In this document: in pieces, positions 21,616 through 50,943 of the stretch
Position numbering within the stretch: the first letter of the stretch is position 1
Layout of the letters: every line of letters starts with the position of its first letter
DNA from: a virus
Lineage: Duplodnaviria > Heunggongvirae > Uroviricota > Caudoviricetes
Strand: one strand, 5' to 3'
Length of the DNA stretch: 64,000 nt
Virus record (IMG/VR): IMGVR_UViG_2531839524_000004
Position numbers and translations under genes: made by a program
Notes under the pieces: generated by a model
Databases searched by the model: none
What the model was told of the DNA's origin: nothing
What the model saw: the letters and a program-made list of their open reading frames with translations, nothing else

Positions 21616-24600
21616 ATGAAGGCTCTAATGGTTCGAACTGACTTCTCTCTTGGGGAGTCGGCTCTAAAAGCAGAAAACGCGGGGAAGATTGCCAGAGAAG
21701 CTGGCTACACCGCTGTAATTTCGGCAGATAGCATGAATATTGCGAGTGTTATTCCACTACAACGTGCCGCTGGTGACGACATGGCGGTTATTTGTGGTGT
21801 GAAACTAAACATCGTTGATGATCCCACATACGAGCACCGGGCTAAACTTGCTAAAGAGTCTATGAGATGTATGGAATCATTAGAGCGTGGGCGGAACTAC
21901 TCGTTTACCGCTCTAATTAAAAATGAGCAAGGATATCGCGACATCTGCGAACTAATGACGGTGGCCAACACACGAGAACAATTCTACTTTGTACCGCGTC
22001 TCTCGCTCGATCAGCTGGTTTCTACATATGCCAAAGGCAACATCATCCTGCTTACTTCCGACATCGGTAGCGTGTTCCAACGCAACGATTTTGCAAAAAT
22101 CATAAGCTCACTGATTACAGCGGGTGGAAAAGACAACTTCTATAGCGTGGTTTATCCGCACCCTACCCCATTCTACGACCAGATTAACGTCCGAGCGATG
22201 AAAGTAGCTAGCGCACTGAAAATAGAGCCAGTGGCGTTCTATCCCGCTTATTACGAATCGATCGACGATGCAGACATTAAAGACATTGCGCACATGGTTA
22301 CGAACAACATCAAAATAGCCCAGCCGCATCGTCTGCGTATCCCCCACCAGCGAGATAACGCCGTCAATGGTCGCCGCCATCTCCTTGAGGCGCTTAAAGC
22401 CTTCTCCGTTCGCATGGATGTGCCGGTAACAGCTGCAATGGCCTCAACAACGCAGGACACCATTATCGAAGCCTGCACATGGCGCTGGCATGAATTGCCA
22501 CCAGCACTTCCTAAGATGGCAGACGACGAACCTGCAACACTGATGAAACTTGCTGTTGCAGGGCTGCGTAAGCGTCTTACCACAAAAGAGTTTGGCTATA
22601 TACCACCGGCTTCTGAGAACAGGGTTTATGTTGAACGACTTAAGTACGAAATGGACACGCTGACTCGCCTGGGATTCTGTGGTTACTTCCTGATGGTGCG
22701 CGATCTGATGAATCATAGTCGTGAAACTGGCATTCCCGTTGGGCCTGGTCGTGGTTCCTCTGCCGGTTCTCTGGTGGCGTGGTGCATAGGCATAACCAAC
22801 GTCGACCCAATCCGTCACGGTCTTCTGTTTGAACGTTTCATCAACCCTGAGCGTCTCGACTTGCCGGATGCGGATTTGGACTTCAGCCAGGCACGTCGCC
22901 ATGAGGTGATCGAGTATCTGAATGAACGCTACGGCGAAGATTACGTTGCAGGCATTCCGAACTTCACCTACCTGGGCGCCGCCTCTGCACTACGTGACAC
23001 TGCTCGTATTTATGGTGTGGAGTCCGCAGATATGGCGGTATCAAAAGAGCTGAAGAACGTCGAGGATGATAGCCTTCCATTGGAGGAGCTGCGCGAACAA
23101 CTGGCAAGTCTCGACAAATACGCGACAAAATACCCTGATGCATTCAATGCAGCCTGCAAGTTACAAAGCCTTATGCGTGGCTTTGGTAGGCATGCGGCTG
23201 GGATGATCGTAGCAGGTGTTCCTCTGACTGAACGTACACCGGTTGAACGTCGTGGTGACGCGCGTTGTATCGCATTTGACAAGCGTTACTGCGAGGCTAT
23301 GGGCCTAATTAAGCTGGACGTACTTGGCCTAGCAACTCTCGATTTGCTCGATAGTGCAAAACGCTATATCAAAGAGAACACGGGTGAAGATATCAACCTT
23401 GATGCCATTTCTCTTGAAGATCGCAAGGTGCTGGATGGTTTTGCTGCTGGGTACACTCAAGGTGTTTTCCAGCTTGAATCAGGCCCAATGCGCAAGCTGC
23501 TTAAGGACTTAGGTAGTGGCATTGAGCCAATGAGCTTTAAAACGGTCGTTGCTACGACTGCGCTCTTCCGACCGGGGCCAATTCAGTCAGGCATGTTGGA
23601 TGACTATGTTTCTGTCGCCAAAGGTTTTATGACGCCAGAGTCACTACACCCCGTTCTTGATGAGCTTACCGCAGAAACCAACGGTGTGATTCTCTATCAG
23701 GAGCAGACGATGAACGCGACCCGATTGCTTGCCGGCTTCACAATGGCTGAAGCTGACGGCGTTCGTAAAGCGATCGGCAAAAAAGATATGGAAAAAATGA
23801 AGAGCATGGGCGAGAAGTTCATCGTTCAGGCTCAAGCTGGCTGGATAGACGTTGAGCTGGAAGATGGCACTACACAGCGCATTCACCGTGCGGAACATTT
23901 TAAATGCGAAGACGGAACTCTGAAAACTGTCGAAGAGGCACTTGAGCACGGCGCAAAACTACCTATAAACGCAGTACGCGTGACAGCGTCACACCCAGGG
24001 CTATCAGAGATGAAAGCGAAGGAGATCTGGACCGCATTCGAAAAAAATGGTGCCTACCAGTTCAACAAATCACACTCTGTTGCTTACTCCTTAATCAGTT
24101 ATCAATCTATGTGGTTGAAAACTCATTATCCCGCAGAGTTTTTCGCTGCTGCTCTTACTATTCTTGGTGAAGATAAACACCAGGGGCTGGTTAAAGATGC
24201 GCTGACCTATGGCATTCGCGTATTGCCACCAGACGTTAATGTGTCATCTAACCGAATAGAGATCCGCACGCTTGAAGATGGCAGCCAGGTGCTGTTCGCG
24301 CCTTTCTCTGCTGTGAAGGGGTGTTCAGAGAATGGCTGCCAAGCCATCATGAGAGCGCGTGAAAAAGTTGGAGGTAAATTCGAGTCACTGGCGCAATTCG
24401 AAGAAGCTGTCGAGAAACGTGCCTGTAATAGTCGAGTACGCGAATCACTGCAAAAAGTAGGGGCGTTTGCATCCATTGAGCCTGGTAGTCTGCCAGCAAC
24501 TGATCCAGAGCGTCTCCGCGACCAAGCAGAATTGATGGGAAACCTTGTCATAGACGCAGTTAAAGCCTCACGTCCGTTTGAAATGAACCCCAAACGATCG

Positions 24601-25134
24601 GCTGAAATTAACGTGCTCATGACACGGATGGCGGCTGAAATGGGTTTAGGTGATGAACTAATCCGCCCCAGCATTGGTATTAAGCCGAAAATCATGATCA
24701 TTCTGGACAATGCGAACGGCAATGATGCTCGAACCGGTTACTTTATGGAGAACGGATACGACGATTTTAAGGCCAAGTTGCTGACGGCCGGAGATTTGCG
24801 TATGGGCGATCTCTATGTCACAGGCGTTTGCAAGAAGGTTAAAGACAAAGAAAAAGACTACACCAAAGACGAGATCGGCCAGTTCACCGACTTTATGCGT
24901 GAAGAGATCAATCTGGTGCGTCCGACCTATGTTCTGACGTGTGGTAGTCGGGCGACGTCGCTCTTCAACAACAAGAGCAAACCATCCGACCTGGTTGGAC
25001 GCAAAGAGTATCTGCCAGAGCTGGATGTGACCGTTTTCTACGGCTTTAACCCGAATATTTTGTACTTTCGTCCAGAGGAAGGCGAGAAGCTGGAAGCAAT
25101 TCTGGCAGAGGTAGCGGAGACTATTAGCAAATGA
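21616..25134 (+). CDS. DNA polymerase III alpha-like (DnaE-family C-type polymerase)
   Basis: 1172 aa; strong match to DnaE catalytic core, e.g. GPGRGSSAGSLVAWCIGIT..DP and FERFINPERLDLPDADLDF. Confidence 0.9.
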   Translation: MKALMVRTDFSLGESALKAENAGKIAREAGYTAVISADSMNIASVIPLQRAAGDDMAVICGVKLNIVDDPTYEHRAKLAKESMRCMESLERGRNYSFTALIKNEQGYRDICELMTVANTREQFYFVPRLSLDQLVSTYAKGNIILLTSDIGSVFQRNDFAKIISSLITAGGKDNFYSVVYPHPTPFYDQINVRAMKVASALKIEPVAFYPAYYESIDDADIKDIAHMVTNNIKIAQPHRLRIPHQRDNAVNGRRHLLEALKAFSVRMDVPVTAAMASTTQDTIIEACTWRWHELPPALPKMADDEPATLMKLAVAGLRKRLTTKEFGYIPPASENRVYVERLKYEMDTLTRLGFCGYFLMVRDLMNHSRETGIPVGPGRGSSAGSLVAWCIGITNVDPIRHGLLFERFINPERLDLPDADLDFSQARRHEVIEYLNERYGEDYVAGIPNFTYLGAASALRDTARIYGVESADMAVSKELKNVEDDSLPLEELREQLASLDKYATKYPDAFNAACKLQSLMRGFGRHAAGMIVAGVPLTERTPVERRGDARCIAFDKRYCEAMGLIKLDVLGLATLDLLDSAKRYIKENTGEDINLDAISLEDRKVLDGFAAGYTQGVFQLESGPMRKLLKDLGSGIEPMSFKTVVATTALFRPGPIQSGMLDDYVSVAKGFMTPESLHPVLDELTAETNGVILYQEQTMNATRLLAGFTMAEADGVRKAIGKKDMEKMKSMGEKFIVQAQAGWIDVELEDGTTQRIHRAEHFKCEDGTLKTVEEALEHGAKLPINAVRVTASHPGLSEMKAKEIWTAFEKNGAYQFNKSHSVAYSLISYQSMWLKTHYPAEFFAAALTILGEDKHQGLVKDALTYGIRVLPPDVNVSSNRIEIRTLEDGSQVLFAPFSAVKGCSENGCQAIMRAREKVGGKFESLAQFEEAVEKRACNSRVRESLQKVGAFASIEPGSLPATDPERLRDQAELMGNLVIDAVKASRPFEMNPKRSAEINVLMTRMAAEMGLGDELIRPSIGIKPKIMIILDNANGNDARTGYFMENGYDDFKAKLLTAGDLRMGDLYVTGVCKKVKDKEKDYTKDEIGQFTDFMREEINLVRPTYVLTCGSRATSLFNNKSKPSDLVGRKEYLPELDVTVFYGFNPNILYFRPEEGEKLEAILAEVAETISK

Positions 25135-25312
25135 ACAAAGAGAACACCATAAAGGTGGTCAAAGAATTTATGGAAGTGAACAGATTGGCGATGTGAGACA
25201 GTATCGGCTGAAGCGTCAAACCAGAGTAACGCGATCCAACATTTTTAGTAAGAAAGTCGCTTAATTGTAAGGCTCGCTAAGTAGCGAGCCTTAATAGCAA
25301 CAATAAGAGGAC

Positions 25313-26864: not shown

Positions 26865-27893
26865 ATGTCTAAGACATTACTTGATTTGCTTAACAAAACT
26901 CGTGAAGACATTGCCGCCAAACGTGGTAACAACGTTGATCTGACTCGCTTAAAAGACGGCGTCAACTATATCCGCATCTTCCCGAATAAAGACGACCCAA
27001 ACGGTAAGTTCTTCCAGACTTTCGGTATGCACTACGTTAAGTATCAGAACGAGGAAGGTAAAGAAGCAACCAACGCTTATATTTGTGAGCAACATACTCA
27101 CGGTCGCGCTTGTCAGCTATGCGAAATGGTGATGGAAGGTCGCGCTCGTCACAAGGGTAACAAAGCAATGGAAGAACGCATCGGTCAAATGCGTGCCACT
27201 CCTCGCTACCTGGTCAACGGCATTCTTTCTGCTCGTGAGGATTTCGCAGATGCTGAGAAATGCCAGTTAATCGAGCTGCCGTCTACTGTATTCGATGATA
27301 TCTGCAAAGCAATCACCGAAGACATCGCTGATGATATCGGCAATCCACTGAGCAAAGAGGAAGGCTACGCATTCCTGATTAAACGTACTGGCTCTGGTCG
27401 CGATACCAAATATGACGTCTCGCCTAAGCGTAAAGTCTACAAAGGCGATATCGAAGATAAATTCTGGAACACCCAGCATGATCTGATCGCATACGCAAAT
27501 CAGGCTGATGAAACTCGTCTTCTGTCGACAGTTCGCACTATGGGTCGTCTGATTGGCATCGCTGCACCAACTGCCGCAGCATCTGCACCAGCAATTTCCT
27601 CAACCGCGAAAACATCGGCTGCGGCACTACCTGGATTTGGCTCTGTCACTGGTCATACAGAAGGAGCGACGGCTGTAGCTACCGCTCATACCCCAGCTTC
27701 TGAACCAACCAGTCTGGTTGATGAAGAAATCCTCCGTGCCGTTGAAACTGAATTTAAACCAGAAGCAAGTTCCGCTGCCGTTGCCGTATCAGTCAAAGAG
27801 TCTGAAGCAGTCGCAGCGACATCTGTAGCAGCCGCATCTGCGACGGAAGATGAAGGTCTGGATGACCTACTGAGAGAGCTGGACTCTCTGTAA
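26865..27893 (+). CDS. single-stranded DNA-binding protein (gp32-like)
   Basis: Cys/His cluster CEQHTHGRACQLCE; Ala/Ser-rich linker and acidic C-terminal tail DEGLDDLLRELDSL. Confidence 0.6.
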   Translation: MSKTLLDLLNKTREDIAAKRGNNVDLTRLKDGVNYIRIFPNKDDPNGKFFQTFGMHYVKYQNEEGKEATNAYICEQHTHGRACQLCEMVMEGRARHKGNKAMEERIGQMRATPRYLVNGILSAREDFADAEKCQLIELPSTVFDDICKAITEDIADDIGNPLSKEEGYAFLIKRTGSGRDTKYDVSPKRKVYKGDIEDKFWNTQHDLIAYANQADETRLLSTVRTMGRLIGIAAPTAAASAPAISSTAKTSAAALPGFGSVTGHTEGATAVATAHTPASEPTSLVDEEILRAVETEFKPEASSAAVAVSVKESEAVAATSVAAASATEDEGLDDLLRELDSL

Positions 27894-27909
27894 TCCCATT
27901 ACGTGACCA

Positions 27910-27938
27910 GTAAGGCGTCTACGGACGCCTTACTTTTT
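27910..27938 (+). terminator. rho-independent terminator (GGCGTC/GACGCC stem family)
   Basis: GTAAGGCGTC-tacg-GACGCCTTAC followed by TTTTT. Confidence 0.7.
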
Positions 27939-27953
27939 GGAAGGAATGTACCG

Positions 27954-28898
27954 GTGAATTATCTCTTCGTAGATGGCAATAGCCTGGGTTATTACCACCA
28001 ACAATCTGACAAATTGCACAACGGCGAAATGGAAGTACAGGCTGCTTTCGGCTTTGTTAAGAACGTCCGTCGTTATGCCTCCATCCTCCATGCCCGACCT
28101 ATGATTCTTTGGGATGGATTTAGTGACAAGCGTCGCGACTTTTACCCGGACTACAAAGCAAATCGCGACGACGATCCTGATATGAAAAAGATGAAGGAAG
28201 GCTTTGCTATCCAGAAGCCATACATCCTCAAAATGATGACCGCGCTTGGTGTTAACCAAATCATTGCAAAAGATGCAGAAGCGGATGATCTGGCCGGGCT
28301 GCTGGTATCCCGCATGGCACCGCAGCCAACCGTTGAACACATCTATCTGTTAACAGGCGATAGCGACTGGCTTCAGTTAGTTCGCGAAAACGTAAGCTGG
28401 GTAAGCCTGCGTGAAGACGCCAAAAACAAGCAGGTTAATTTTGAGCAATTTGCGGAGCTGACAGGATTCGCCACGCCTCGCGCATTTTTGGAAGCAAAAG
28501 CATTACAAGGCGATAACTCGGACAACATTAGCGGTGTTGGTGGCATTGGTGCTGGCGGTGCGAAAGAGCTGCTGCATGAATGGGGAAGTGTCGCAACGAT
28601 GGTACGCGGCATCAACGACGGCTCAATCGTGGTTAATAAAGGGCGTCATAAGACCGCCTTCAACAAACTAGCGAAGAATGCCTTCAACGAGAAAACAGGC
28701 TGTCGAATGCTCGAAGCGTTCAAGAGAAACATCACGCTAATGAACCTGATTGAGACGAAGTTTCCGCCTACCGAAATCGAAACAATCAAAGGCAATCGTG
28801 ACGTGAAAGCATTCGAGCAACTGTGCTACGAGCTGAATTTCCGTTCGTTCCTTGAAGACCTTGAAGTGTTTGTTCTTCCATTCGAAAGGTATTGCTAA
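27954..28898 (+). CDS. flap endonuclease / 5'-3' exonuclease
   Basis: LFVDGNSLGYY N-terminal motif, GDSDWLQL, H3TH-like GVGGIGAGGAKELL; start set at in-frame GTG 27954 after GGAAGG RBS. Confidence 0.75.
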   Translation: MNYLFVDGNSLGYYHQQSDKLHNGEMEVQAAFGFVKNVRRYASILHARPMILWDGFSDKRRDFYPDYKANRDDDPDMKKMKEGFAIQKPYILKMMTALGVNQIIAKDAEADDLAGLLVSRMAPQPTVEHIYLLTGDSDWLQLVRENVSWVSLREDAKNKQVNFEQFAELTGFATPRAFLEAKALQGDNSDNISGVGGIGAGGAKELLHEWGSVATMVRGINDGSIVVNKGRHKTAFNKLAKNAFNEKTGCRMLEAFKRNITLMNLIETKFPPTEIETIKGNRDVKAFEQLCYELNFRSFLEDLEVFVLPFERYC

Positions 28899-29164: not shown

Positions 29165-29166
29165 TC

Positions 29167-30240
29167 ATGGCAAAAGGAAAATCCGCACTGGCACTTGCTC
29201 TGAAAAAGAAAATCGGTAGCAACGACGAAATTCAGAAAGTAACTCATTGGATTGATACAGGCTTTCCACCGTTAAACAAAGCTATTTCTGGTCGTTACGA
29301 TGGCGGCTTCCCATGTGGTCGTATCGTCGAAGGATTCGGTCCTCCAAGTGCAGGGAAAACGTTCCTTGCAACAGCAGCGATGATCTCCGCTCAAAAACAA
29401 GATGGTCTGGCGGTATTCCTCGATCATGAAAACAGTTTTGACGTTGGCCTGGCTGTAGCCAATGGCCTGAACGCAGATGAGGATGACGGTCAGTGGGTAT
29501 ACAAGCAGCCTGATACCTTCGAAGACTCTGTAGAGTTGATCGGCACAATTCTTAAATTGGTACGTGATGAAGAGCTTATTCCTGAATCAGCACCTATCTG
29601 TATCGTGGCTGACTCACTTGCGTCTATGGTTCCGAACTCCAAAGCCGAGAAGTTCGAAAAGATGGCTGAAGGCACTGCCAAAGACAAAGATCAGCTAAAC
29701 ATGAACGACAATACGGCACTGGCTCGTGCGACAAGTGCGAACTTCCCTACTCTGGCTTTGTGGGCACGCAAATACAACGCCTGCATCATCTTCTTGAATC
29801 AGGTTCGCACAAAAATCGGTGTAATGTTTGGCGACCCTACTACGTCGCCAGGTGGAGATTCACCGAAGTTCTACGCTTCTGTACGTATCCGTCTTGGTGC
29901 ATCGGTGATGAAGGATGGTAAAGAGAAGATCGGCCAGGACGTAGGCGCAGAATGCATCAAAAACAAAGTTGCACCACCGTATGGCAAATGCACCTGGAAA
30001 TTCTACTTCGATCCTACTCGTGGCCTCGACGTTATCGAATCGCTCGTCGAGTACATGCTGGAAGAAGGATACCTGCCAAAGAACGCCAGCGGGCGAGTTG
30101 AAATTGGTGACAAGAAATACACCAAATCGCAGATCGTCGAGATGTATCGGGAGAAGCCACTGGCTGAAATCATTGCGGCTTTGCAGGCAATCGACGACCG
30201 AAGAGCAAAAGACAACCCCACCGAGTCAGTAGAAGAGTAA
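29167..30240 (+). CDS. RecA-family recombinase (UvsX/Sak4-like)
   Basis: GRIVEGFGPPSAGKTFLA Walker A context closely resembling the RecA core; 357 aa. Confidence 0.8.
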   Translation: MAKGKSALALALKKKIGSNDEIQKVTHWIDTGFPPLNKAISGRYDGGFPCGRIVEGFGPPSAGKTFLATAAMISAQKQDGLAVFLDHENSFDVGLAVANGLNADEDDGQWVYKQPDTFEDSVELIGTILKLVRDEELIPESAPICIVADSLASMVPNSKAEKFEKMAEGTAKDKDQLNMNDNTALARATSANFPTLALWARKYNACIIFLNQVRTKIGVMFGDPTTSPGGDSPKFYASVRIRLGASVMKDGKEKIGQDVGAECIKNKVAPPYGKCTWKFYFDPTRGLDVIESLVEYMLEEGYLPKNASGRVEIGDKKYTKSQIVEMYREKPLAEIIAALQAIDDRRAKDNPTESVEE

Positions 30241-35066: not shown

Positions 35067-35112
35067 ATGCAAACTGACTGCGGCTCGTTCCGCAGTCATA
35101 TTTCATAGTCGT

Positions 35113-36740: not shown

Positions 36741-36759
36741 GTGGACACCTTTGTCATTC

Positions 36760-39046: not shown

Positions 39047-39275
39047 GGCAAAGTCGTTATGGGAGCTTTCGAGACTTTGCCATCACGATGAAAAGACTTG
39101 AACGAGGCCAGACGGTGATGTTTCACAAGCCCTACCCGCCACAAGGAAATCCCGTAGCGTTTTATCTTGGAAGGTTAACCAGAAAAGGCGTATTGAGGCG
39201 CAGATCCTTCCCGGCGCATACGGAGTTCAGATTGAAAGAAGGTCAAAAGCTAACACACGGTATCAAAGGTGTTAT

Positions 39276-41934: not shown

Positions 41935-42504
41935 ATGAGTAAAAAAATCAGCGTAGTTGGTGTTGATCCCTCAATGAGCAACTTTGGGCTTGCTGTGGGC
42001 ACTTTAGACCTTGAGACGGACGAACTTGAGATTCACGGCCTTACTCTTGTTGAGACTAAAGCGGGGAGTAACAAAAAGACCGTTCGTGTGAACAGTGACG
42101 ATCTGCGCCGAGCCAGTGAAATATGGCGTGTTGCGAAGCCAATCATTGATAAGGCAAATATGGTTTTTTGTGAGCTACCGGTTGGGAGCCAAAACTCTCG
42201 TTCGCAGACGTCTTACGGTATTTGTATCGGTGTACTTGCGTGTGTGGATAAGCCATTGATCCAGGTTACTCCAAACGAAATCAAGCATTTTGTCGGCAAT
42301 AAACTTACTACATCGAAAGAAGAGATTATCCAGTGGGCTACGAAAAAACACCCTAAAGCACCGTGGCTGCGTCGTAAGCAATCTGGACAGGATGTTCTCG
42401 TGAACAAAAACGAACATTTGGCTGATGCGGTGGCTGCCATCCATACCGGTATGCAAACAGATCAGTTCCGCCAGGTGCGCGATGTTCTTAAGTCTCTCAT
42501 TTGA
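41935..42504 (+). CDS. RuvC-like Holliday junction resolvase
   Basis: VVGVDPSMSNFGLAV N-terminal motif, acidic FCELPV, C-terminal ADAVAAIHTG resembling RuvC catalytic motifs. Confidence 0.6.
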   Translation: MSKKISVVGVDPSMSNFGLAVGTLDLETDELEIHGLTLVETKAGSNKKTVRVNSDDLRRASEIWRVAKPIIDKANMVFCELPVGSQNSRSQTSYGICIGVLACVDKPLIQVTPNEIKHFVGNKLTTSKEEIIQWATKKHPKAPWLRRKQSGQDVLVNKNEHLADAVAAIHTGMQTDQFRQVRDVLKSLI

Positions 42505-42577: not shown

Positions 42578-44893
42578 ATGATAAGCATCGTAAAACGTAA
42601 CGGCCAAACAGAGCCGTTATCCGAAGAAAAATACAACCGCGTCGTAATGTATGGCGTAGAAGGCATTCGTGGTGTAAGCGCATCCGCTGTAGCAATGGGA
42701 GCTGCGGCCAGCATTTTTGATGGGATGACCACCAGCCAGTTGCATGAGGCTTTGGTTAAATCTGCCGCTGATTTGATCTCACCAGAAGCACCAAATTACT
42801 CACAGGTGGCTGCCCGCCTGAACATTTTTAAAATCCGCAAAGATGCCTTCGGTCGTTACGACTATCCGAACTTCTACCAACACATTGTCAAGAACGTTAA
42901 CAAGGGCGTTTATGACAAGGATTTGCTGACACATTATTCGTTTGAAGAGATCGAAGAACTCGGCAATTACATTAAGCCGAAACGTGACGATCTTTTTGGC
43001 TATGCAGCTACGGTGCAGTTGCAAAGCAAATACCTCGTTCAAAACCGTGTTACTGGTGAGATTCATGAGGGGCCGCAACATATCTATATGCTGGTAGGCA
43101 TGTGTCTGTTCCAGAATTGGGAAGACGACTGCGCTGGCAAAACACGTATGGAGATGGTCAAAGGTTTCTATGACGTTACAAGTACGTTCAAACTGTCTCT
43201 GCCCACACCAATCATGGCCGGCGTCCGTACTCCAACCCGTCAGTTCTCCAGTTGTGTGCTGATTGAGTCTGGCGATAGTCTGAAAGGGATTAGTGCAGCT
43301 TCAGCCGCAATTATCGACTACGTTTCACGTCGTGCTGGAATTGGTATTGGTTTTGGCCGTATCCGTGCGCTGGGCAGCGAGATCCGCAATGGTGAAGCCA
43401 CCCATACCGGAGTTATTCCATTCCTGAAGCATTTCCAGACGGCTGTTAAATCTTGTTCGCAAGGTGGTGTTCGTGGTGGCGCAGCAACAGCGTTTTACCC
43501 GATCTGGCATCTTGAAGTTGAAAGTCTGCTGGTGGTGAAAAATAACCGTGGTATTGATGAAAACCGCGTTCGCCATCTTGATTACGGCGTCATGAGTAAC
43601 CGTCTAATGTACCGTCGACTCGTCAGAAGCGAGAACATCACTCTGTTCAGCCCGCATGATGTGCCTGATATGTACGAAGCCTTCTTCACAGACCAGGAGC
43701 TGTTTGAAAAGCTGTACCATAAATACGAAGCCGATGATTCAATTCGCAAGAAGTCAGTACCTGCCATTGAGCTGTTCTCATCTCTGATGCAGGAACGAGC
43801 GTCCACGGGCCGAATTTATATTGCGAACGTCGATCATATTAATGAGCATGGCGCTTTCATTCCTGCTCTTGCACCTGTCCGCCAGTCAAACCTGTGCATG
43901 GAGATCACTCTACCCACTCGTCCACTGGCATTTACCGACGACCCGAACGGTGAGATCGCGCTATGCACTTTATCCGCTTTTAACCTCGGAGCCATCCGTT
44001 CACTGGAGTCTCTTAAAGAGGTGGCGTTCTATGCCGTTGCTGCACTGGATTCGTTACTGGATTATCAAGACTATCCGATGGAGGCAGCCGAAGTGCCTGC
44101 CAAAGCTCGTCGTAGCTTGGGAATTGGTGTAACCAACTTTGCTTATTACCTGGCAAAGAATGGCGTTCGTTATTCTGATACCGCTGGCAATAAACTGGTG
44201 CATGAAACGTTCGAAGCTATCCAGTATTACCTTCTTGATGCCAGCTGCCGACTTGCTGAAGCAAAAGGTGAGTGTGACTGGTTTGAGCAGACCAAATACG
44301 CAATTGGTCAGTTGCCGATCGACCATTACCGTTCTTCATTAGACGAAAGTGGCGAAACCAACTTTGAGTTAAAGATGCCGTGGGAAGAACTGCGTGAACG
44401 TATTGCAAAATACGGCCTTCGCAACTCCACACTGACGGCACAAATGCCATGCGAGACTTCCAGCCAGATCACTAATTCCACCAACGGCATCGAACCGCCT
44501 CGTGGCCCGGTGTCAGTGAAATCTTCTAAGGACGGCATCGTCAAGATGGTCGTGCCTGAGTTTGAAAAACTGAAGGAACAGTATGAATACCTGTGGGATA
44601 TGCCGGACAACCGCGGCTATCTGACAAAGGTGGCGATCATCCAGAAGTTCTTTGACCAGGCTATTTCGGCCAATACCAACTATGACCCTTCTCGCTTTGA
44701 AGGCGATAAAGTCCCAATGATGACGCTACTGTCAGATTTGCTTCTCGCCTACAAGATGGGAGTTAAAACGCTTTACTACCACAACACCAGAGATGGTGCA
44801 GGAAAGCGTGATGACGACGAACCGCAGAATCCACTGGCGCAAGCTGTAGCCGTCGAGCCAGAAGATGAGTGCGACGGAGCCTGCAAAATCTGA
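42578..44893 (+). CDS. nrdA: ribonucleotide reductase class Ia alpha subunit
   Basis: 771 aa; long identical stretches to enterobacterial NrdA (e.g. LVQNRVTGEI, SLPTPIMAGVRTPTRQFSSCVLIE, PVRQSNLCMEI); C-terminal CDGACKI. Confidence 0.9.
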   Translation: MISIVKRNGQTEPLSEEKYNRVVMYGVEGIRGVSASAVAMGAAASIFDGMTTSQLHEALVKSAADLISPEAPNYSQVAARLNIFKIRKDAFGRYDYPNFYQHIVKNVNKGVYDKDLLTHYSFEEIEELGNYIKPKRDDLFGYAATVQLQSKYLVQNRVTGEIHEGPQHIYMLVGMCLFQNWEDDCAGKTRMEMVKGFYDVTSTFKLSLPTPIMAGVRTPTRQFSSCVLIESGDSLKGISAASAAIIDYVSRRAGIGIGFGRIRALGSEIRNGEATHTGVIPFLKHFQTAVKSCSQGGVRGGAATAFYPIWHLEVESLLVVKNNRGIDENRVRHLDYGVMSNRLMYRRLVRSENITLFSPHDVPDMYEAFFTDQELFEKLYHKYEADDSIRKKSVPAIELFSSLMQERASTGRIYIANVDHINEHGAFIPALAPVRQSNLCMEITLPTRPLAFTDDPNGEIALCTLSAFNLGAIRSLESLKEVAFYAVAALDSLLDYQDYPMEAAEVPAKARRSLGIGVTNFAYYLAKNGVRYSDTAGNKLVHETFEAIQYYLLDASCRLAEAKGECDWFEQTKYAIGQLPIDHYRSSLDESGETNFELKMPWEELRERIAKYGLRNSTLTAQMPCETSSQITNSTNGIEPPRGPVSVKSSKDGIVKMVVPEFEKLKEQYEYLWDMPDNRGYLTKVAIIQKFFDQAISANTNYDPSRFEGDKVPMMTLLSDLLLAYKMGVKTLYYHNTRDGAGKRDDDEPQNPLAQAVAVEPEDECDGACKI

Positions 44894-44898
44894 CATAT

Positions 44899-44930
44899 GG
44901 TGGGGGATATCCCCACCTTCTCTTTGATTT
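44899..44930 (+). terminator. rho-independent terminator
   Basis: GGTGGGGGATATCCCCACC hairpin followed by TTCTCTTTGATTT. Confidence 0.65.
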
Positions 44931-44999
44931 GTAAGCCTTGTTTAAACACATAAGATAACAACTTGTTTAAACGCACCAAAAAAGAAAAAGGAAAAACAC

Positions 45000-46142
45000 A
45001 TGTCATATTCAACGTTCCGTTTGGGTGCTAATGATGCAACCAAAGAGCCTATGTTCCTCGGACAATCTGTCAACGTGGCACGTTACGATCAGCAAAAATA
45101 CCGTGATTTTGAAAAGTTGATTGAACGTCAATTGTCTTTCTTCTGGCGGCCGGAAGAAGTTGATATTTCGAGCGATCGTATCGACTTCAACACGAAGCTG
45201 CGGGACCACGAACGTCACATTTTTCTGAGCAATCTCCGTTATCAAACGTTACTCGATTCAGTTCAGGGACGTAGTCCAAATGCAACGCTGCTGCCGCTTA
45301 TCTCTATTCCTGAACTGGAAACGTGGGTTGAAACGTGGTCTTTCTCTGAGACTATCCATAGCCGCAGCTACACCCACATTATTCGTGGCATGGTGGACGA
45401 TCCGAGCATTGTTTTTGACGGTATTGTTACGGATGAAGAAATCATCAACCGAGCGATCAGTATCTCTGCTGAATATGACAGGCTTTATGGGATGACCTGC
45501 GAGCGCCAGTCGTTAGGTGAGAAGGAATTTGAGCGTCTGTACGTAAATGAATATGGCTGGGAGCCATACCCTTTGCATCGTCAGCTTTTCCGCACGTTGG
45601 TGTCCATTAATGCGCTTGAGGCGATCCGTTTCTACGTAAGTTTTGCATGTACGTTTGCCTTTGGTGAACGGAAGTTGCTTGAGGGTAACACCAAAATTAT
45701 GCGCTTTATTGCCCGTGATGAAGCTCTGCATTGCGAAGGAACTGAACGCATGATCCGCTTCATGCGTACCGGTCGCGAAGGTTTATTGTGGAAAGAGATT
45801 GCTGCTGATGAAGAAAACGTCATTTACGACACCATGAAATCAGTCGCCGAACAAGAAATGAACTGGGCAGACTATCTCTTCAAAGACGGTTCGATGATTG
45901 GTTTAAACGCGGATATTCTCAAAACCTATGTAAAATACCGCACCAATCTGGCTATGAATCGTCTTGGCCTGAAGGCTTTATTTCCAGAAGTTACCACAGA
46001 TCCGCTGGTCTGGATGAACAAGTGGTTGTTAACCGACACACTGCAAATTGCACCACAAGAGGCAGAGCAAAGCACATATCTGGTAGGTCAGATCGATTCT
46101 ACCGTGGATAAGGCTTCTCTAAGCCAGTTTGCAGACCTGTAA
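45000..46142 (+). CDS. nrdB: ribonucleotide reductase class Ia beta subunit
   Basis: 380 aa; near-identity to enterobacterial NrdB in blocks such as FFWRPEEVD and [33 protein letters not shown]. Confidence 0.9.
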
Positions 46143-46219
46143 ACCGATACAAAGCATTATGTGGCCTGGCAACGCTGGGCCACAATGGATCACAAGAATT
46201 AAGAAGGAACAAAACTAGC

Positions 46220-47089
46220 ATGAACTTTACCAAACTGACTGACCCCCTGAAACTTGCCACCGATCGTCTCATTGGATTTAAGCCAGAACCATATGAGTTG
46301 CATGAAGGTCATGGTGTAGCTACTGAAAGTATTTACAAGATGGTCGATCAGTTTCATGAACTCTTCCAGCATCCGAGACGCGTTATGCCGACACCAGAGC
46401 TGCTTCGTCTCCGTGCAAGCCTGATTCATGAAGAAGCTGTAGTGGAAGGTATTCCAGCCGCAATGAATGGGGATATTGAGCAACTGCTGGATGCAATGGC
46501 CGACTTTTTATACGTTGGTGTTGGTACGATGGTCGCCATCAAAGGTGGTATTTCTACCGGCATGACCTATTACACGCAGGAACAGAGCATTGATCGCTTT
46601 ATGCAGACAATTTTTGTGCCCGGTAACACTGTTTTCGATGATATGGCAATGCCATTTCAGGAAGCTCGTGAGGCGTCATATATGCTCGAAGAGCTGGCAG
46701 ATAAACTTGAGAACAAGACTGTTAAGGATTCTGAGCTGATTCAGGAACTGCGCCGTGTCATGAACAAAATCTATGTGGCGTGCATGATGACCTATCGACT
46801 GGCTGATTTCCTCGGTATCAATGTAGTCGAGCTGGTTGGCGAAATTCATCGGTCTAACATGACAAAATTATGGCCTGCTGATGTCGAGGAACGTCGCCAG
46901 GCTGTGGCCAACTGCAAATACGACTCTTCAGACCTGGGATTTCGCCATGCTGATGGTACCGATAAGATGATCGGTTTTCGAATTTCCGATGGAAAGATTC
47001 TGAAGTCTCCAACCTATAGTGATGTCGATTTATCCTCCTTTGTTGAGCAAGCTAAAGCCTCAGCAATGTACGGAATGATCAAAAAATAA
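46220..47089 (+). CDS. putative MazG-like nucleoside triphosphate pyrophosphohydrolase
   Basis: All-alpha candidate with acidic EEAVVEG...DIEQLLDAMADFLY pattern reminiscent of MazG/HisE; weak, by eye. Confidence 0.35.
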   Translation: MNFTKLTDPLKLATDRLIGFKPEPYELHEGHGVATESIYKMVDQFHELFQHPRRVMPTPELLRLRASLIHEEAVVEGIPAAMNGDIEQLLDAMADFLYVGVGTMVAIKGGISTGMTYYTQEQSIDRFMQTIFVPGNTVFDDMAMPFQEAREASYMLEELADKLENKTVKDSELIQELRRVMNKIYVACMMTYRLADFLGINVVELVGEIHRSNMTKLWPADVEERRQAVANCKYDSSDLGFRHADGTDKMIGFRISDGKILKSPTYSDVDLSSFVEQAKASAMYGMIKK

Positions 47090-47156
47090 TTGTAGGTAGT
47101 TATCTATCTATGTATATTGTGTTAGCGCGTTAAATTCCTGAAACAACTATTCGTTT

Positions 47157-47182
47157 TGGTGGCCTATGGCCACCATTTTTTT
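47157..47182 (+). terminator. rho-independent terminator
   Basis: TGGTGGCC-tat-GGCCACCA followed by TTTTTTT. Confidence 0.75.
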
Positions 47183-47259
47183 ATCTATCTGGCCTTGTTC
47201 CCTCAATAAATGTAAACTCACGCAATGAATAAGTGATTACTTATCTTTGTGAGGTTTTT

Positions 47260-48363
47260 GTGTCACTCCTTTTGAATCGTGAGCATACGAACGGTCAGGT
47301 AACAAACGCATCGTATGCAAAAGTTATTGAGACGGTGCTTAAAAGCGGCGTGCAGGCTGATGATCGCACAGGCACTGGTACTTTAAGCACCTGCTACGTT
47401 CCCTCTTACTACATGCTTACTGGTGGGACTGTGCCGCTTATTTCTGGAAAGGCGGTAAATCTTAAGCCACTGCTTGTCGAACTTGAGTGGTATCTGAAAG
47501 GCACGGGCAACATCCAATTTCTCAAGGATAACGGCGTTAAGATTTGGGATGCATGGGCCGATGAGAATGGCGATTTGGGGCCAGTTTACGGTAAGCAGTG
47601 GCGTCGATGGGAAGATACCCGCATCGTGAGCCATAGTGAATATCTGAGCAAGATCGCTACTTTCCGTGAACGCGGGTACAAAGTCGAGGGATACCTAGGT
47701 ATCAGTGAAGATCGCGTAGTGCTGTCCCGTGAAATCGATCAGCTACAGCGTATTGTCGATACACTGCGCACGAACCCTACCGATCGTCGCATCATGCTTA
47801 ACGCATGGAACGTAGGCGAGCTTGAGGATATGAAACTGCCACCTTGCCACTTTGTCTTCTCTTTGTGGAGTCGTGAGCTTGATTTTGAAACCCGTTTAAC
47901 GATGGCAACTGACATTGGTCTTCAACACAGTCGCCTCGGTTACGAGTCTATCTACACCAAGATGCTATACGATCTGGAGATGGACGGCAGTGTTACTGAA
48001 GCTGAACTGGATGAACTTGGAATCCCCAAACGCATCCTCAACTCCTGCCTCGTACAGCGTAGCGTAGACACTTTTGTTGGTATGCCATTCAATATTGCTG
48101 GCTATGGCATTCTCACTCATTTTCTCGCGAAGATTACGGGTCACATGGCCGGTGCATTTGTGCATTTTGGCTTTGACGTGCATTTGTACAATAACCACAT
48201 GGAAAGTGTGCGTGAGCTAATGCAACGACAGGCTCCAGAGCATTCAGATCCGGTCGTTATATTCCCTAATGAATGGTCTGAGCTGGATGATTTCAAATGG
48301 GACGAGATTCTTATTCTTGGCTATGCCCCTCTACCGTGGATCAAGGTTCCAGTGGCGGTGTGA
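47260..48363 (+). CDS. thyA: thymidylate synthase (ThyA) with two in-frame insertions
   Basis: DRTGTGT, WADENGDLGPVYGKQWR, catalytic LPPCH, MPFNIA motifs; GTG start at 47260 after GAGG RBS; about 100 aa longer than E. coli ThyA. Confidence 0.85.
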   Translation: MSLLLNREHTNGQVTNASYAKVIETVLKSGVQADDRTGTGTLSTCYVPSYYMLTGGTVPLISGKAVNLKPLLVELEWYLKGTGNIQFLKDNGVKIWDAWADENGDLGPVYGKQWRRWEDTRIVSHSEYLSKIATFRERGYKVEGYLGISEDRVVLSREIDQLQRIVDTLRTNPTDRRIMLNAWNVGELEDMKLPPCHFVFSLWSRELDFETRLTMATDIGLQHSRLGYESIYTKMLYDLEMDGSVTEAELDELGIPKRILNSCLVQRSVDTFVGMPFNIAGYGILTHFLAKITGHMAGAFVHFGFDVHLYNNHMESVRELMQRQAPEHSDPVVIFPNEWSELDDFKWDEILILGYAPLPWIKVPVAV

Positions 48364-48364
48364 T

Positions 48365-48778
48365 ATGGCAAGAGGTATGTATGTCTTATGCGAAATTGAA
48401 GGTGTGCTGGCAAATACCAGCCATCGTAAATCTGTATCTGACTCGGATGCAGGCCAATTCATTGCCGGTGATGAACTCATTTTCCCCACCAGCCGTATGT
48501 TGCGTGGTTTTGCTCGCTCAGGGGCTGAAGTGGTGCTTATCAGTAGCCGCTCTGAAACTCTTGAAGCGCCCACTAAACGATGGCTGAAAGATTTTGGTGT
48601 TGATTACGACTGGCTTCATCTCGTACCGAATAGCACTAGTTATGAGAAGCATATTAAGCGCACATTAGCGGAGCATAAAGGCGATCTGCTTATCGCTGCG
48701 CTGGTGCACGATCCTCGACTCCGTGCCGCTTTAGCTGACTCTCATCATAGACCGGTCATCTATGAGGTGAGCAAATGA
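48365..48778 (+). CDS. hypothetical protein
   Basis: 137 aa ORF between thyA and DHFR, translationally coupled. Confidence 0.45.
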   Translation: MARGMYVLCEIEGVLANTSHRKSVSDSDAGQFIAGDELIFPTSRMLRGFARSGAEVVLISSRSETLEAPTKRWLKDFGVDYDWLHLVPNSTSYEKHIKRTLAEHKGDLLIAALVHDPRLRAALADSHHRPVIYEVSK

Positions 48779-49251
48779 AGATGATAGCTGCTGTTGGCCG
48801 TAACTATGAGATCGGCATAGCGAACGAACTGCCCTGGCGTTGTTCTACCGATCTGAAGCTATTTAAGAGACTCACCAAAAACGCCACTGTCGTTATGGGG
48901 CGTAAAACGATGGAAAGTCTCAAACGCCCTCTTCCAGAGAGTCATAACCTCGTTTTGACGCGCTCTCATGGCTTTGTACCAAATGGATTCTACCCTGCTG
49001 GTGTGGATGATGTGTTGCGATTACCAGAGCCTGTGTGGGTGATTGGCGGGGAACAAATTTACTCGCTATTCATGCCGCATGTTGAAGAGATTTGGCTCTC
49101 CCACATCGGCGTTGATGTGCCAAACGCCGATGCATTCTTCCCGGCAAGCATGATGCGTAATTTAGGCTTTGTGCCTGTTGAAACAGCTTATACCCAACGA
49201 GCCAGCGAGGAAGAGCCTGGCTTTTCGCAGATCGTATACAGAAGGTCGTAA
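48775..49251 (+). CDS. folA: dihydrofolate reductase
   Basis: MKMIAAVGRNYEIGIANELPWR N-terminus and overall DHFR-like length/pattern (VMGRKT, VIGGEQIY). Confidence 0.75.
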   Translation: MKMIAAVGRNYEIGIANELPWRCSTDLKLFKRLTKNATVVMGRKTMESLKRPLPESHNLVLTRSHGFVPNGFYPAGVDDVLRLPEPVWVIGGEQIYSLFMPHVEEIWLSHIGVDVPNADAFFPASMMRNLGFVPVETAYTQRASEEEPGFSQIVYRRS

Positions 49252-49895
49252 TGGATTACCGGATTGGGATCACTGGTGCTCAGGGCAGTGGGAAAACAAC
49301 CCTGGCTAAATATATCGACAAACATTACGGAATCCCTTACGTGGATGCTGGTGTCGGAAGTTTGATGAGCCGCCTCGGTGTTCGAGTAGGTGATTCTATG
49401 CCTCTATATGAGCGGCTTCAGATTCAAATGGAAATAGCAAAGCATATAGAGCTACTTACGCGTGGTGTTGAAGGCTTTGTTATCGATCGCACACCTGCTG
49501 ATGTTATGGCCTACACGTTGGATTTGGTCGGCCATACAAATGAAGATCGGTGTATTGAGTTAGCCCTCGATATCGAAAAGTTTTGCCACAAAACTGCTAT
49601 TTCAAACTTTAACGCCATTGCTGGCCTACGCCCGGGGGTCGCTCTCTCAGAGCGAGATTACTTGCGGTCACAACGAGCATCATTAGACCGTCTGTATGTC
49701 GCTCGTATTGATGCGTTGATGTGCGGGGAACTGACAAAAATTCACCTGCATCCGCAAAGGGGAGATCTGCAAACCTTCGTCGTTTCCAACCGGTATCGCA
49801 CAGTTGAAGCAAGAGCCAGATCAGTGATGAGAATGCTAGATAACGCTGTAGAAAAGATAGAAAACCGCTTCTGTGGCCGAGTAACCGTTCATTAG
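49251..49895 (+). CDS. deoxynucleoside monophosphate kinase-like P-loop kinase
   Basis: P-loop GAQGSGKTT at N-terminus; 214 aa; nucleotide-metabolism context. Confidence 0.6.
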   Translation: MDYRIGITGAQGSGKTTLAKYIDKHYGIPYVDAGVGSLMSRLGVRVGDSMPLYERLQIQMEIAKHIELLTRGVEGFVIDRTPADVMAYTLDLVGHTNEDRCIELALDIEKFCHKTAISNFNAIAGLRPGVALSERDYLRSQRASLDRLYVARIDALMCGELTKIHLHPQRGDLQTFVVSNRYRTVEARARSVMRMLDNAVEKIENRFCGRVTVH

Positions 49896-49956
49896 AAATT
49901 GTTCGCCTCTTCGACATTGCGACAATAAAACTCTCAAAATGGGTTAAGGATAAAAA

Positions 49957-50376
49957 ATGTTTAGTGAAATGTTGCTTGAAGATGAACTGGATCGGAAAAC
50001 AACAGAGGCTTTGATTCGTGTAGCGGACGAACATTCCCGGTCGCTTATGAGCGATCGAGAGGCTCGTCTGGCTATTCGTGCCATATTCGAAACTGCGCAG
50101 GGGCTTGTTGGTACACAAGTGGGTGAAGCCATTAACATCGCCATGTCTCAGTTCAGTGAAGGCAGTAAAAAGCCTCTGTTTCCTATGCATTTGATGCTGG
50201 CTGGTGGCACGGTGCTTTATATCTCTGTTTGTCTGGATAGCAACCAAATCAATATTCTCAACACTGTGTCAGGTAAGTGGAAAGATCCGATTGTCTGTGA
50301 AACCAGTGAAGAAACTTTGAAAAAAGCGGCTCAATTTGTACGTAGCGCACTACTTAAGGGCGCTAAGAAGTTGTAA
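49957..50376 (+). CDS. hypothetical protein
   Basis: 139 aa ORF. Confidence 0.45.
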   Translation: MFSEMLLEDELDRKTTEALIRVADEHSRSLMSDREARLAIRAIFETAQGLVGTQVGEAINIAMSQFSEGSKKPLFPMHLMLAGGTVLYISVCLDSNQINILNTVSGKWKDPIVCETSEETLKKAAQFVRSALLKGAKKL

Positions 50377-50385
50377 GGAGTTCTG

Positions 50386-50943
50386 ATGACAACGATTGTT
50401 GCAGGCATCGATATCGAGTCTACGGGACTGGATTTCCTTGCTGGTCATAAAATTATTGAAATCGCAATTACCCGCTATGAACTGGAGACACAGAGACATA
50501 TTGATAGTCTGGAGATGCGTTTTAACCCTCGCAGAAACATAGATCCGAAAGCTCAAGCCGTTCATGGCATTTCATTGGAACAGCTCGCAGCTGAACCTTT
50601 GTTGTCAAATCATGCCAGCGAAATTGGCGCTTATATGGGGGCATGTAGTGTGTGGGTTGCTCATAACGGCGAAGCATTTGATATACCATTTATTCGACAC
50701 GAGTTTTCAGGGTATGGAGTAAGACTGCCAGAAGTTCCTGTTATAGATACTATGTTATCGGGATTGTGGGCCACAGAAGACGGCAAACGTCCCCGCCTTG
50801 AAGAGTTGGCCTTCTCTCTTGGCTATATATACGATCATGCCAAAGCACATAGTGCCTTATATGACACAAACTTAATGATGCAATGCTTCTTTAAGGCACG
50901 TAATAAGTACGGATTTTTTAAATTACCCTCTGAAATTGTGTAA
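50386..50943 (+). CDS. DnaQ-like DEDDh 3'-5' exonuclease (candidate proofreading subunit)
   Basis: Exo I GIDIESTG, Exo II HNGEAFDIPF, Exo III HSALYDTNL. Confidence 0.75.
   Translation: MTTIVAGIDIESTGLDFLAGHKIIEIAITRYELETQRHIDSLEMRFNPRRNIDPKAQAVHGISLEQLAAEPLLSNHASEIGAYMGACSVWVAHNGEAFDIPFIRHEFSGYGVRLPEVPVIDTMLSGLWATEDGKRPRLEELAFSLGYIYDHAKAHSALYDTNLMMQCFFKARNKYGFFKLPSEIV

Follow-up and report, generated by a model that had tools for sequence, protein, structure and literature searches.

The DNA analysed here is a 64,000-nt stretch of a Caudoviricetes genome (IMG/VR record IMGVR_UViG_2531839524_000004), referred to as the window, which encodes a DnaE-type DNA polymerase and, 25 kb downstream, a stand-alone DEDDh exonuclease (Table 1). 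A first-pass annotation, made from the sequence without database searches, had reported a C-family polymerase III (Pol III) alpha-like protein and a separate DnaQ-like exonuclease that could serve as its proofreading subunit. Both genes were confirmed as open reading frames (ORFs) with exact coordinates, the polymerase by matches in Pfam, NCBIfam and PDB and the exonuclease by its invariant DEDDh residues. The pattern of ORFs, domains and plasmid iterons in the window is not due to chance. From the evidence described below, the short epsilon-like exonuclease would most likely give DnaE 3'-5' proofreading in trans, a reading that we hold with reasonable but incomplete confidence.

Table 1 Features of the window discussed in the text (aa, amino acids)
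Feature	Coordinates	Strand	Support
DnaB-like replicative helicase, 446 aa	5269..6609	+	Pfam DnaB_C 3.7e-13; NCBIfam phage_DnaB 8.7e-14, below cutoff
DnaG-like primase, 417 aa	6619..7872	+	NCBIfam dnaG domain 5.2e-9; Pfam Toprim_2 and DNAG_N weak; primase label in relatives
ATP-dependent DNA ligase, 440 aa	10400..11722	+	NCBIfam ligase models 1e-12 to 1e-6, all below cutoffs; label in SSU5 and nickie
CobT-like (VWA) and CobS-like (AAA+) pair, directly upstream of dnaE	17996..21435	+	NCBIfam, PHROGs
DnaE-type (C-family) DNA polymerase, 1172 aa	21616..25134	+	Pfam, NCBIfam, PDB, full-length PHROG 405 match
PHP domain of DnaE, about aa 1-290, metal ligands replaced	21616..22485	+	Alignment to M. 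tuberculosis DnaE1
Fingers insertion of about 53 aa, aa 740-792	23833..23991	+	Gap between two aligned blocks versus Taq DnaE
Candidate beta-clamp-binding motif QAELM, aa 970-974	24523..24537	+	Position just after (HhH)2; family conservation
Family-4 UDG-like domain of DnaE, about aa 1010-1172, degenerate catalytic motifs	24643..25131	+	TIGR00758, Pfam, PDB profile, AF2, Foldseek
gp32-like single-strand DNA-binding protein (SSB)	26865..27893	+	Pfam gp32 1.7e-66
5'-3' exonuclease / flap endonuclease (FEN)	27903..28898	+	Pfam 5_3_exonuc_N 1.5e-24, 5_3_exonuc 6.8e-12
RecA/UvsX-like recombinase	29167..30240	+	Pfam RecA 4e-41; TIGR02012 1.3e-43, below cutoff
P1-RepA-type plasmid replicon, rep gene 35646-36860 (-)	35108..36861	-	Rep3_N, iterons, P1 RepA identity
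Nuclease pair, SbcD-like (37961-39046) and SbcC/Rad50-like (39276-41192)	37961..41192	+	Metallophos 2.9e-9; AAA_23, SMC_N, SbcC_Walker_B
RuvC-like Holliday-junction resolvase	41935..42504	+	PHROG 159 3e-57; NCBIfam RuvC 0.005; nickie homologue annotated RuvC
Nucleotide-metabolism block: NrdA, NrdB, MazG-like, ThyA, HAD-like, dihydrofolate reductase (DHFR), nucleoside monophosphate (NMP) kinase-like	42578..49895	+	Pfam, PDB, NCBIfam
139-aa ORF of unknown function, 10 nt upstream of the exonuclease gene	49957..50376	+	PHROG 5373, unknown function
Epsilon-like DEDDh 3'-5' exonuclease, 185 aa, candidate trans-acting proofreader	50386..50943	+	Pfam, PDB, PHROG 192, AF2, Foldseek
RNase HI, domain aa 66-208, start codon uncertain	53603..54277	+	Pfam RNase_H 1e-44

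The window is part of an SSU5-like phage-plasmid of Escherichia coli, an identity that follows from nucleotide similarity and shared gene order. At the nucleotide level its dnaE region shares 95-97% identity with E. coli plasmids such as pG749_2 and with the Escherichia phages CMS-2020a and PhiR41_1, and 85% with Salmonella phage SSU5; in the nucleotide search, 782 plasmid records matched the element. The same gene order was found in the window, SSU5, PhiR41_1 and the complete, PGAP-annotated relative pG749_2 (97.5% identical), which also has the virion genes that lie outside the window. The window also encodes a ParA-like protein (2354-3022) and a RepA with iterons. SSU5-like phage-plasmids are a well-described group (for example PMC7969092). 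The window shares with the SSU5, pHCM2 and pMT1 type 85-97% nucleotide identity over dnaE, the gene order and the annotated products, namely Pol III alpha, 3'-5' exonuclease or 'epsilon', RepA and ParA, and differs only in accessory content, such as a DUF4365 gene after dnaE and a low-GC island at 14-16 kb, and in the allele of Rep. Both genes were already labelled as Pol III alpha and epsilon in the records of several relatives; the element, the genes and these labels are public in PhiR41_1, Cyrano, nickie and PHROG 192.

The polymerase has the architecture PHP(degenerate)-Pol3-(HhH)2-UDG-like, in which UDG denotes uracil-DNA glycosylase. It was matched in Pfam by PHP (1.7e-11; 45 bits, cutoff 26.4), DNA_pol3_alpha (1.4e-73), DNA_pol3_finger (2.5e-44) and HHH_6 (3.5e-16), and in NCBIfam by the superfamily model TIGR00594 with 627 bits (cutoff 434). 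Its best relatives of solved structure in PDB are the DnaE proteins of Taq, M. tuberculosis and E. coli (1e-120 to 1e-108). The catalytic aspartate motifs of the palm are kept, PDADLDF and KLDVLGL being aligned with PDIDTDF and KMDFLGL of Taq, and by these motifs the polymerase core is intact. The DnaE1 equivalog PRK05673 gave 675 bits, below its cutoff of 1002. Because this cutoff was not reached, the OB and tau-binding C-terminal domains (CTD) were not found with Pfam and NCBIfam, and a family-4 UDG fold was found at the C-terminus, the protein is classed by its domain content as a DnaE-form polymerase and not as a DnaE1 orthologue; it matches the 'DnaEX' described in PMC3919608. The C family had been noted as unusual for phages in the first-pass annotation. 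DnaE is indeed uncommon, occurring in about 2.4% of phage records (1,209-1,214 of 50,697), but it is not exceptional, and 947 C-family polymerases have been reported among 18,382 Caudoviricetes genomes, or about 5% (PMC11348598).

In the alignment with M. tuberculosis DnaE1, the metal ligands of the PHP domain were found to be replaced: DH reads DS, GVE reads GVK, the histidine of TH falls in a gap and NDCHY reads FYPAYY. In the N-terminal sequence HxH reads VRT. The metal site is destroyed by these replacements and exonuclease activity of the PHP domain is predicted to be absent, so that an external proofreader would be needed. All ligands (HxH...DH...E...H...DxH) are kept in P0240 and P0255, two distant members of the family with the same C-terminal UDG-like domain (UDG-tailed DnaE below). 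By motif, the ancestral UDG-tailed members have retained both an active PHP site and the Fe-S cysteines discussed next.

The C-terminal domain of DnaE was matched by TIGR00758 (1.1e-7), and Pfam UDG (PF03167) was matched by 28 of the 28 aligned family members. The family profile found 4zbx, the UDG of S. tokodaii, in PDB at 7e-21. The AlphaFold2 (AF2) model of the domain has a pLDDT of 91, and Foldseek returned TM0511, TthUDG of T. thermophilus and UdgX at probability 1.0 with a TMt of up to 0.78. By profile and model alike, this part of the protein has the alpha/beta fold of a family-4 UDG. Enzymes of this family carry the catalytic motifs A, GE(A/G)PG, and B, HP(S/A), together with cysteine ligands of a 4Fe-4S cluster. 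At motif A, where 4zbx has GEAPG, the family consensus is (l)D(a)P(n) and the window DnaE has LDNANG; the histidine of motif B is replaced by asparagine (GFNPN); and a CxxC pair present in many relatives (P0139, P0144, P0149 and P0169) is absent from the window DnaE and from P0128. As read from the alignment, the catalytic motifs of the UDG-like domain are degenerate and the Fe-S cysteines are lost.

It has been reported that a UDG domain in place of the OB and CTD is an 'unusual variant', which some Yersinia pestis and Salmonella enterica strains have as a further polymerase (Timinskas et al. 2014; PMC3919608). The architecture of that 'DnaEX' is exactly the same and was borne out here by the profile search, the predicted structure and the fold search; the phage origin, the PHP status, the clamp motif and the exonuclease partner, none of which is mentioned in the passages retrieved from that paper, come from the present analysis. 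Phage polymerases of the A family fused to UDG have also been described, with an inactive UDG in the N4-like and an active one in the SP15-like and SPO1-like enzymes, and the UDG domain of the SP15-like enzymes makes contact with the 5' template strand (bioRxiv 10.1101/2025.03.26.645540). These proteins likewise join a replicative phage polymerase to a type-IV UDG fold, and the N4-like ones have lost the UDG catalytic residues as the window DnaE has. They differ in the polymerase family (A versus C) and in the position of the UDG domain, which is N-terminal in the Czernecki clusters and C-terminal here; the text of that preprint contains no occurrence of DnaE, C-family or Pol III.

The UDG-tailed form is not rare. 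An exhaustive search of representatives returned more than 150 metagenomic clusters at 50% identity. When cultured phages were searched with P0255 by tblastn, the UDG-tailed form was confined to the same lineages as the exonuclease family. The loci found from P0255, which has an intact PHP, were contigs of 5-7 kb only. Many metagenomic relatives, including P0131 and P0138, are only 380-400 aa long and consist of (HhH)2 and the UDG-like domain, which suggests that the dnaE gene is split at a fixed point in them. Such C-terminal pieces are held as 'unknown function' in PHROGs 4335 and 13175, and one NCBI fragment is named 'uracil-DNA glycosylase'. The fingers insertion is restricted to the SSU5 clade, being present in P0128 and absent from P0136 and others. 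Larger insertions were also seen among relatives: some Klebsiella relatives (phages p4727 and GArcari) have about 730 extra nt within dnaE, the metagenomic relative P0234 gave a LAGLIDADG match, and in P0162 about 420 extra aa form an insertion that by eye resembles an intein.

A published clamp-binding consensus, QL[S/D]LF, is sited after (HhH)2 (PMC3919608). At this place the window DnaE has QAELM, which corresponds to the QADMF region of E. coli, where GAFASIEP aligns to residues 886-893. Among 43 full-length relatives the Q is conserved in 38, the L at position 4 in 35 and an aliphatic residue at position 5 in 41. This Q-x-x-L-[LM] motif would mediate binding to the host beta clamp.

The exonuclease was matched by Pfam RNase_T, the general DEDDh family, at 2.3e-21. 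Residues D9, E11, D99, H155 and D160 do not vary among the 53 members of the family alignment and align with the motifs of E. coli epsilon, whose exonuclease domain is also the best relative of solved structure (5e-11 when searched with the sequence alone, 1e-23 with the profile of the family). In the same profile search the exonuclease domains of DinG and PolC were found at 7e-17 and 7e-15, RNase T at 2e-13, TREX2 at 2.6e-13 and ExoX at 9e-8. The top NCBIfam matches were epsilon models (1.9e-19), and in PHROGs the protein matched PHROG 192, 'DNA polymerase exonuclease subunit', at 6.5e-51. The AF2 model has a pLDDT of 96.4; its top Foldseek match was the exonuclease domain of S. aureus DinG (4e-12), and epsilon was matched with a TM of 0.83 at about 30% identity. 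By these profiles the exonuclease is of the epsilon type rather than of an RNase type, and all catalytic residues are kept.

The first-pass annotation had itself raised the case of an RNase-type DEDD enzyme unrelated to proofreading, and the profile values of epsilon and RNase T point away from it. A wider form of this idea, that the protein acts on RNA or signalling nucleotides, like RNase T or oligoribonuclease or in anti-defence, and has no part in replication, could draw on the name of the Pfam family, on RNase T structures among the Foldseek matches (about 3e-10) and on an Acb2/Tad1-like anti-defence gene of a Halomonas element related to the SSU5-type module (contig JXYB01000010; L005, 12731-12997), which lies downstream of the exonuclease homologue at a distance of about 2.2 kb. 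The NCBIfam RNase T model reached only 1e-4 against 1.9e-19 for epsilon, the PDB profile search gave RNase T 2e-13 against 1e-23 for epsilon, and no oligoribonuclease match was returned in NCBIfam or in that search. We regard this explanation as very improbable.

The distribution of the two genes was then compared in a phage collection of 50,697 records, with the lineages compared among the matches listed. Exonuclease homologues of at least 39% identity occur in 31 records, belonging to SSU5-like, Rhizobium RHEph10-like, Stenotrophomonas, Pseudomonas nickie-like and Xanthomonas JGB6 phages. The same lineages carry a DnaE that aligns over its full length including the UDG-like C-terminus (31 of 117 records at a coverage of at least 80%, among the matches listed), with about 35% DnaE identity between lineages. 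The DnaEs of phages not of the SSU5 type align to the window DnaE no further than about residue 990.

In bacteria, an active PHP domain and an E. coli-type DnaQ have been reported to be mutually exclusive (PMC11348249). In a small survey of eight phage lineages with DnaE, the PHP status was read by eye from the N-terminal sequences and the genomes were searched for an epsilon-like exonuclease (for Mycobacterium Hawkeye, 42 of 67 kb). All five lineages with a degenerate PHP carry a short exonuclease of this type (184-199 aa). In the SSU5-like lineage of the window and in Pseudomonas nickie its gene is 25 kb from dnaE; in Pbunavirus JG024 it abuts the start of dnaE, and in Xanthomonas phage Carpasina and Cronobacter phage Ss1 it overlaps it. 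Two of the three lineages with an intact PHP had no such gene in the sequence searched, namely Streptomyces Aaronocolus (no match in the whole genome) and Hawkeye, and Bacillus Glittering has one distant from dnaE. The exonucleases of JG024, Carpasina and Ss1 were matched by the hidden Markov model of the SSU5 family at 1e-15 to 1e-19. These three phages thus resemble the window in combining a degenerate PHP with the short exonuclease, and differ from it in the position of the gene, at the start of dnaE instead of in the nucleotide-metabolism block, and in their shorter DnaEs (931-1035 aa).

This association bears on a second explanation, in which the protein is a 3'-5' DNA exonuclease of repair or recombination, of the ExoX, TREX or DinG-exonuclease-domain type, which acts outside the polymerase and, together with the RecA-like, SbcCD-like and RuvC-like proteins, trims 3' ends in the service of recombination-dependent replication. 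The element does carry a full recombination set, in which a weak UvsY-like protein can be included, and the leading Foldseek match is a DinG exonuclease domain, with TREX2 and ExoX also found. However, the family profile places epsilon ahead of DinG, TREX2 and ExoX, the exonuclease gene is outside the recombination block, and in the survey its presence tracks the dead-PHP state of DnaE. We consider a repair role quite unlikely.

The position of the gene raises a third explanation. Phage exonucleases such as T4 DexA have been ascribed a role in nucleotide salvage. The window protein could in the same way degrade host DNA fragments or oligonucleotides to deoxynucleoside monophosphates that feed the kinase, thymidylate synthase, DHFR and ribonucleotide reductase, with DnaE either having no dedicated proofreader or recruiting host epsilon. 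The gene closes the nucleotide-metabolism block on its downstream side, as a rule a few genes past the NMP-kinase-like gene, in the window, the Halomonas element, metagenomic contigs and most of 74 viral loci; it is never beside dnaE in the SSU5-type lineage, and the protein has no recognisable polymerase-binding extension. On the other side, a 110-kb genome with a dead PHP needs some proofreader, and the PHP has diverged too far (E 0.08 against any solved PHP) for binding of host epsilon to be assumed. In three other phage lineages with a dead PHP, a homologous short exonuclease gene directly adjoins dnaE, and the families returned in PHROGs were 'DNA polymerase' and 'DNA polymerase exonuclease subunit', with no other exonuclease family at E <= 0.001. 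Salvage as the function of the exonuclease is therefore judged unlikely.

Several points weigh against trans proofreading of DnaE by the exonuclease. The exonuclease is below all NCBIfam epsilon cutoffs (PRK05711, 70.3 of 196 bits; TIGR01406, 66.5 of 222.7; TIGR00573, 55.2 of 71.5), and on fold ranking alone epsilon cannot be distinguished from the DinG exonuclease domain or RNase T. The protein stops at residue 185, where the clamp motif and alpha-binding tail of epsilon would start, and in the alignment to epsilon neither the C-terminal segment that binds the PHP of alpha nor the QTSMAF clamp motif was found; the whole family is only 170-210 aa long. A conserved G-F-F-x-L-P occupies the position of QTSMAF, and it was considered as a clamp-binding or polymerase-binding peptide. 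This was largely rejected: AF2 models the segment as ordered with high confidence (pLDDT about 96, then 84), so it is probably structural and not a tethering peptide. In the polymerase, position 5 of the candidate clamp motif is M and not F, and the P-G that follows it in most relatives is G-N here. In the 74 viral loci and three metagenomic or genomic contigs, dnaE was never within 10 kb of the exonuclease gene, which was always downstream of nucleotide-metabolism genes, an arrangement just as compatible with a salvage nuclease. Shared ancestry alone may account for co-occurrence within one phage lineage, the association of dead PHP and exonuclease comes from eight lineages, and the physical pairing of the two proteins is an inference from sequence. 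The suggestion of a proofreading subunit is thus favoured by the comparative evidence, and held back by the missing tail, the separation of the genes within the lineage and the inferred nature of the pairing.

Trans proofreading without such a tail has some precedent, as DnaQ homologues lacking the alpha-binding tail can proofread via the beta clamp (PMC11348249). In mycobacteria, a non-canonical DnaQ homologue proofreads with DnaE1 and does not bind alpha via an epsilon-type tail, as would hold for the window exonuclease; it binds the beta clamp, and its clamp-binding motif is dispensable for the antimutator effect (PMC11348249). The mycobacterial system differs in that PHP is the main proofreader and DnaQ has a BRCT domain and a C-terminal clamp motif (PMC11348249), whereas the window PHP is dead and its exonuclease has no convincing clamp motif. 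With the E. coli Pol III core (alpha-epsilon-theta) the window shares a non-catalytic PHP, a separate DEDDh exonuclease about 30% identical to the epsilon domain, and a Q-x-x-[LM]-hydrophobic motif after (HhH)2. It differs from that core in that its exonuclease lacks the epsilon tail and a QTSMAF-type motif, its alpha lacks the OB and tau-binding domains, theta and clamp loader were not detected, and neither protein reaches the NCBIfam equivalog cutoffs. The 139-aa ORF was considered as a theta-like partner; nickie and the Halomonas element have ORFs of comparable length at this place. Its pairwise similarity to its positional counterparts is weak (2e-4 with nickie, 5e-5 with the Halomonas element), the four-way alignment was poor and no informative family match was obtained. 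Together with the exonuclease gene this ORF may form a conserved two-gene unit.

The plasmid iteron replicon that the first-pass annotation placed alongside the polymerase genes is real. Its 404-aa initiator matched Rep3_N at 5.2e-9 (37 bits, cutoff 22.4) and is 43.5% identical to P1 RepA, with residues 71-348 aligned. The iteron core ACCGCTGACAGCATA occurs in at least 15 copies in two arrays flanking rep, 11 at 35108-35645 and 4 at 36755-36861, so a Rep3-family initiator lies between direct-repeat arrays, as predicted for an iteron-type replicon. Iterons flanking rep are the incC/incA layout of P1. The window replicon shares with P1 RepA and RepFIB the Rep3-type initiator and the iteron arrays on both sides of rep, and differs in its longer initiator and in being embedded in an SSU5-type phage replication module. 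No rep match was found in the Rhizobium, Pseudomonas and Stenotrophomonas relatives, which are not plasmids, and the window Rep is 48% identical to that of SSU5 (59428-60492) where DnaE is 94.5% identical. The plasmid replicon seems to have been swapped among otherwise near-identical elements, and from these comparisons it is a separate, inserted and exchangeable module of plasmid maintenance.

The genes of the replication module are ordered as helicase, primase, ligase, CobT/CobS-like pair, DnaE, SSB, FEN, RecA-like, SbcCD-like, RuvC-like, ribonucleotide reductase, ThyA, DHFR, kinase and exonuclease. Since Pseudomonas phage nickie keeps this order without Rep or iterons, the DnaE module is the phage's own replication system. 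The helicase gene has the same position in SSU5 and nickie.

The description of this set as a near-complete bacterial-type replisome went too far. No sliding clamp or clamp loader was detected among the scanned ORFs of the window with Pfam and PHROGs, and none is annotated in the complete relative pG749_2; the conserved unknown ORFs 4476-5225, 9083-9865, 41182-41925 and 51102-51911 likewise gave no clamp or loader in these sequence-level scans. The host beta clamp is therefore probably used. DnaE itself is without the OB and tau-binding domains, and SSB (gp32-like), the recombinase, the SbcCD-like nuclease, FEN and the ATP-dependent ligase are of phage type. The listed helicase, primase, ligase, SSB and FEN all exist, although only SSB and FEN are inside the interval 21616-50943 and the other three are upstream of it. 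The RNase H was misassigned: the gene probably meant is the RuvC-like one, which had no Pfam RNase_H match and whose SSU5 homologue is labelled 'ribonuclease H-like', and the true RNase HI (PRK00203, 220 bits, cutoff 160) lies outside the interval. A 214-aa P-loop protein (49251-49895) matched PHROG 168, 'clamp loader of DNA polymerase', at 4e-11, and was rejected as a clamp loader because PDB and NCBIfam point to adenylate, cytidylate and dephospho-CoA kinase types and the similarity is mostly confined to the P-loop. The PHROG 168 label is misleading for this NMP-kinase-like protein.

Some further genes adjoin the module. The CobT-like (1.7e-18) and CobS-like (1.1e-24) proteins are far below the NCBIfam cutoffs and match PHROGs 1576 and 249; the pair is also present in L008 (11981-15382), and in nickie, at about 35% DnaE identity, one small ORF separates it from dnaE. 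The pair is classed in PHROGs under 'porphyrin biosynthesis' or auxiliary metabolism. Upstream of the SSB gene, a 143-aa protein (26316-26747) had a weak UvsY-like match (PHROG 231, 1.6e-4) and would complete a T4-style set of SSB, UvsX and UvsY. DHFR (48775-49251) is 99% identical (155/157) to a pG749_2 protein named trimethoprim-resistant DfrA51 by PGAP. The DUF4365 gene (25313-26161, minus strand) follows dnaE in the window and in pG749_2; in SSU5 and PhiR41_1 the site is occupied by other genes, so this is a variable accessory slot. A cluster of four tRNA genes (13312-13862; Asn-GTT, Tyr-GTA, Thr-TGT and Ser-TGA) was found where the SSU5 record has a single tRNA-Asn in the matching region. 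The segment 14001-17051 has a low GC content (0.35 versus about 0.45) and looks like an accessory or cargo island, with a 420-aa ORF without Pfam match (14055-15317, minus strand) adjoining a tyrosine integrase gene (15948-17051).

Putting these parts together, the DnaE module would drive replication in the lytic cycle, and the P1-RepA-type replicon would maintain the prophage as a plasmid using the host replisome. DnaE would synthesise DNA on the host beta clamp, its errors would be edited in trans by the short epsilon-like exonuclease, and FEN, RNase HI and ligase would process Okazaki fragments. The UDG-like domain may serve in template handling or in sensing of uracil or lesions. A more specific and tentative proposal, which we regard as possible but doubtful, is that UDG-tailed DnaE and the short exonuclease constitute a minimal two-protein phage 'Pol III core'. 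It would use the host beta clamp via Q-x-x-L-[LM] and dispense with tau, and the degenerate UDG-like domain would replace the OB fold for single-stranded template handling or read-ahead, paralleling the UDG-fused A-family polymerases.

This is an ordinary finding, for the most part explained before, and what is known of the element is unchanged; the functional link of polymerase and exonuclease is deduced from comparison. The element, the gene labels and, since 2014, the UDG-tailed architecture (PMC3919608) are already known. The additions made here are modest: the dead PHP site, a clamp-like motif that is conserved, the metagenomic breadth of the family and the association of dead PHP with the exonuclease across phage lineages. 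SSU5-like phage-plasmids are very common in Enterobacteriaceae, as the number of matching plasmid records indicates, and carry resistance determinants such as DfrA51 (PMC12217456). Which replication functions they bring and which they borrow, the latter being probably the beta clamp and clamp loader, bears on their host range, copy-number bursts and targeting. In the lineages compared here, a dead PHP in a phage DnaE goes with a short epsilon-like exonuclease, a pattern that extends the bacterial rule to phages, and the pair offers a simple two-protein system for trans proofreading without an epsilon tail.

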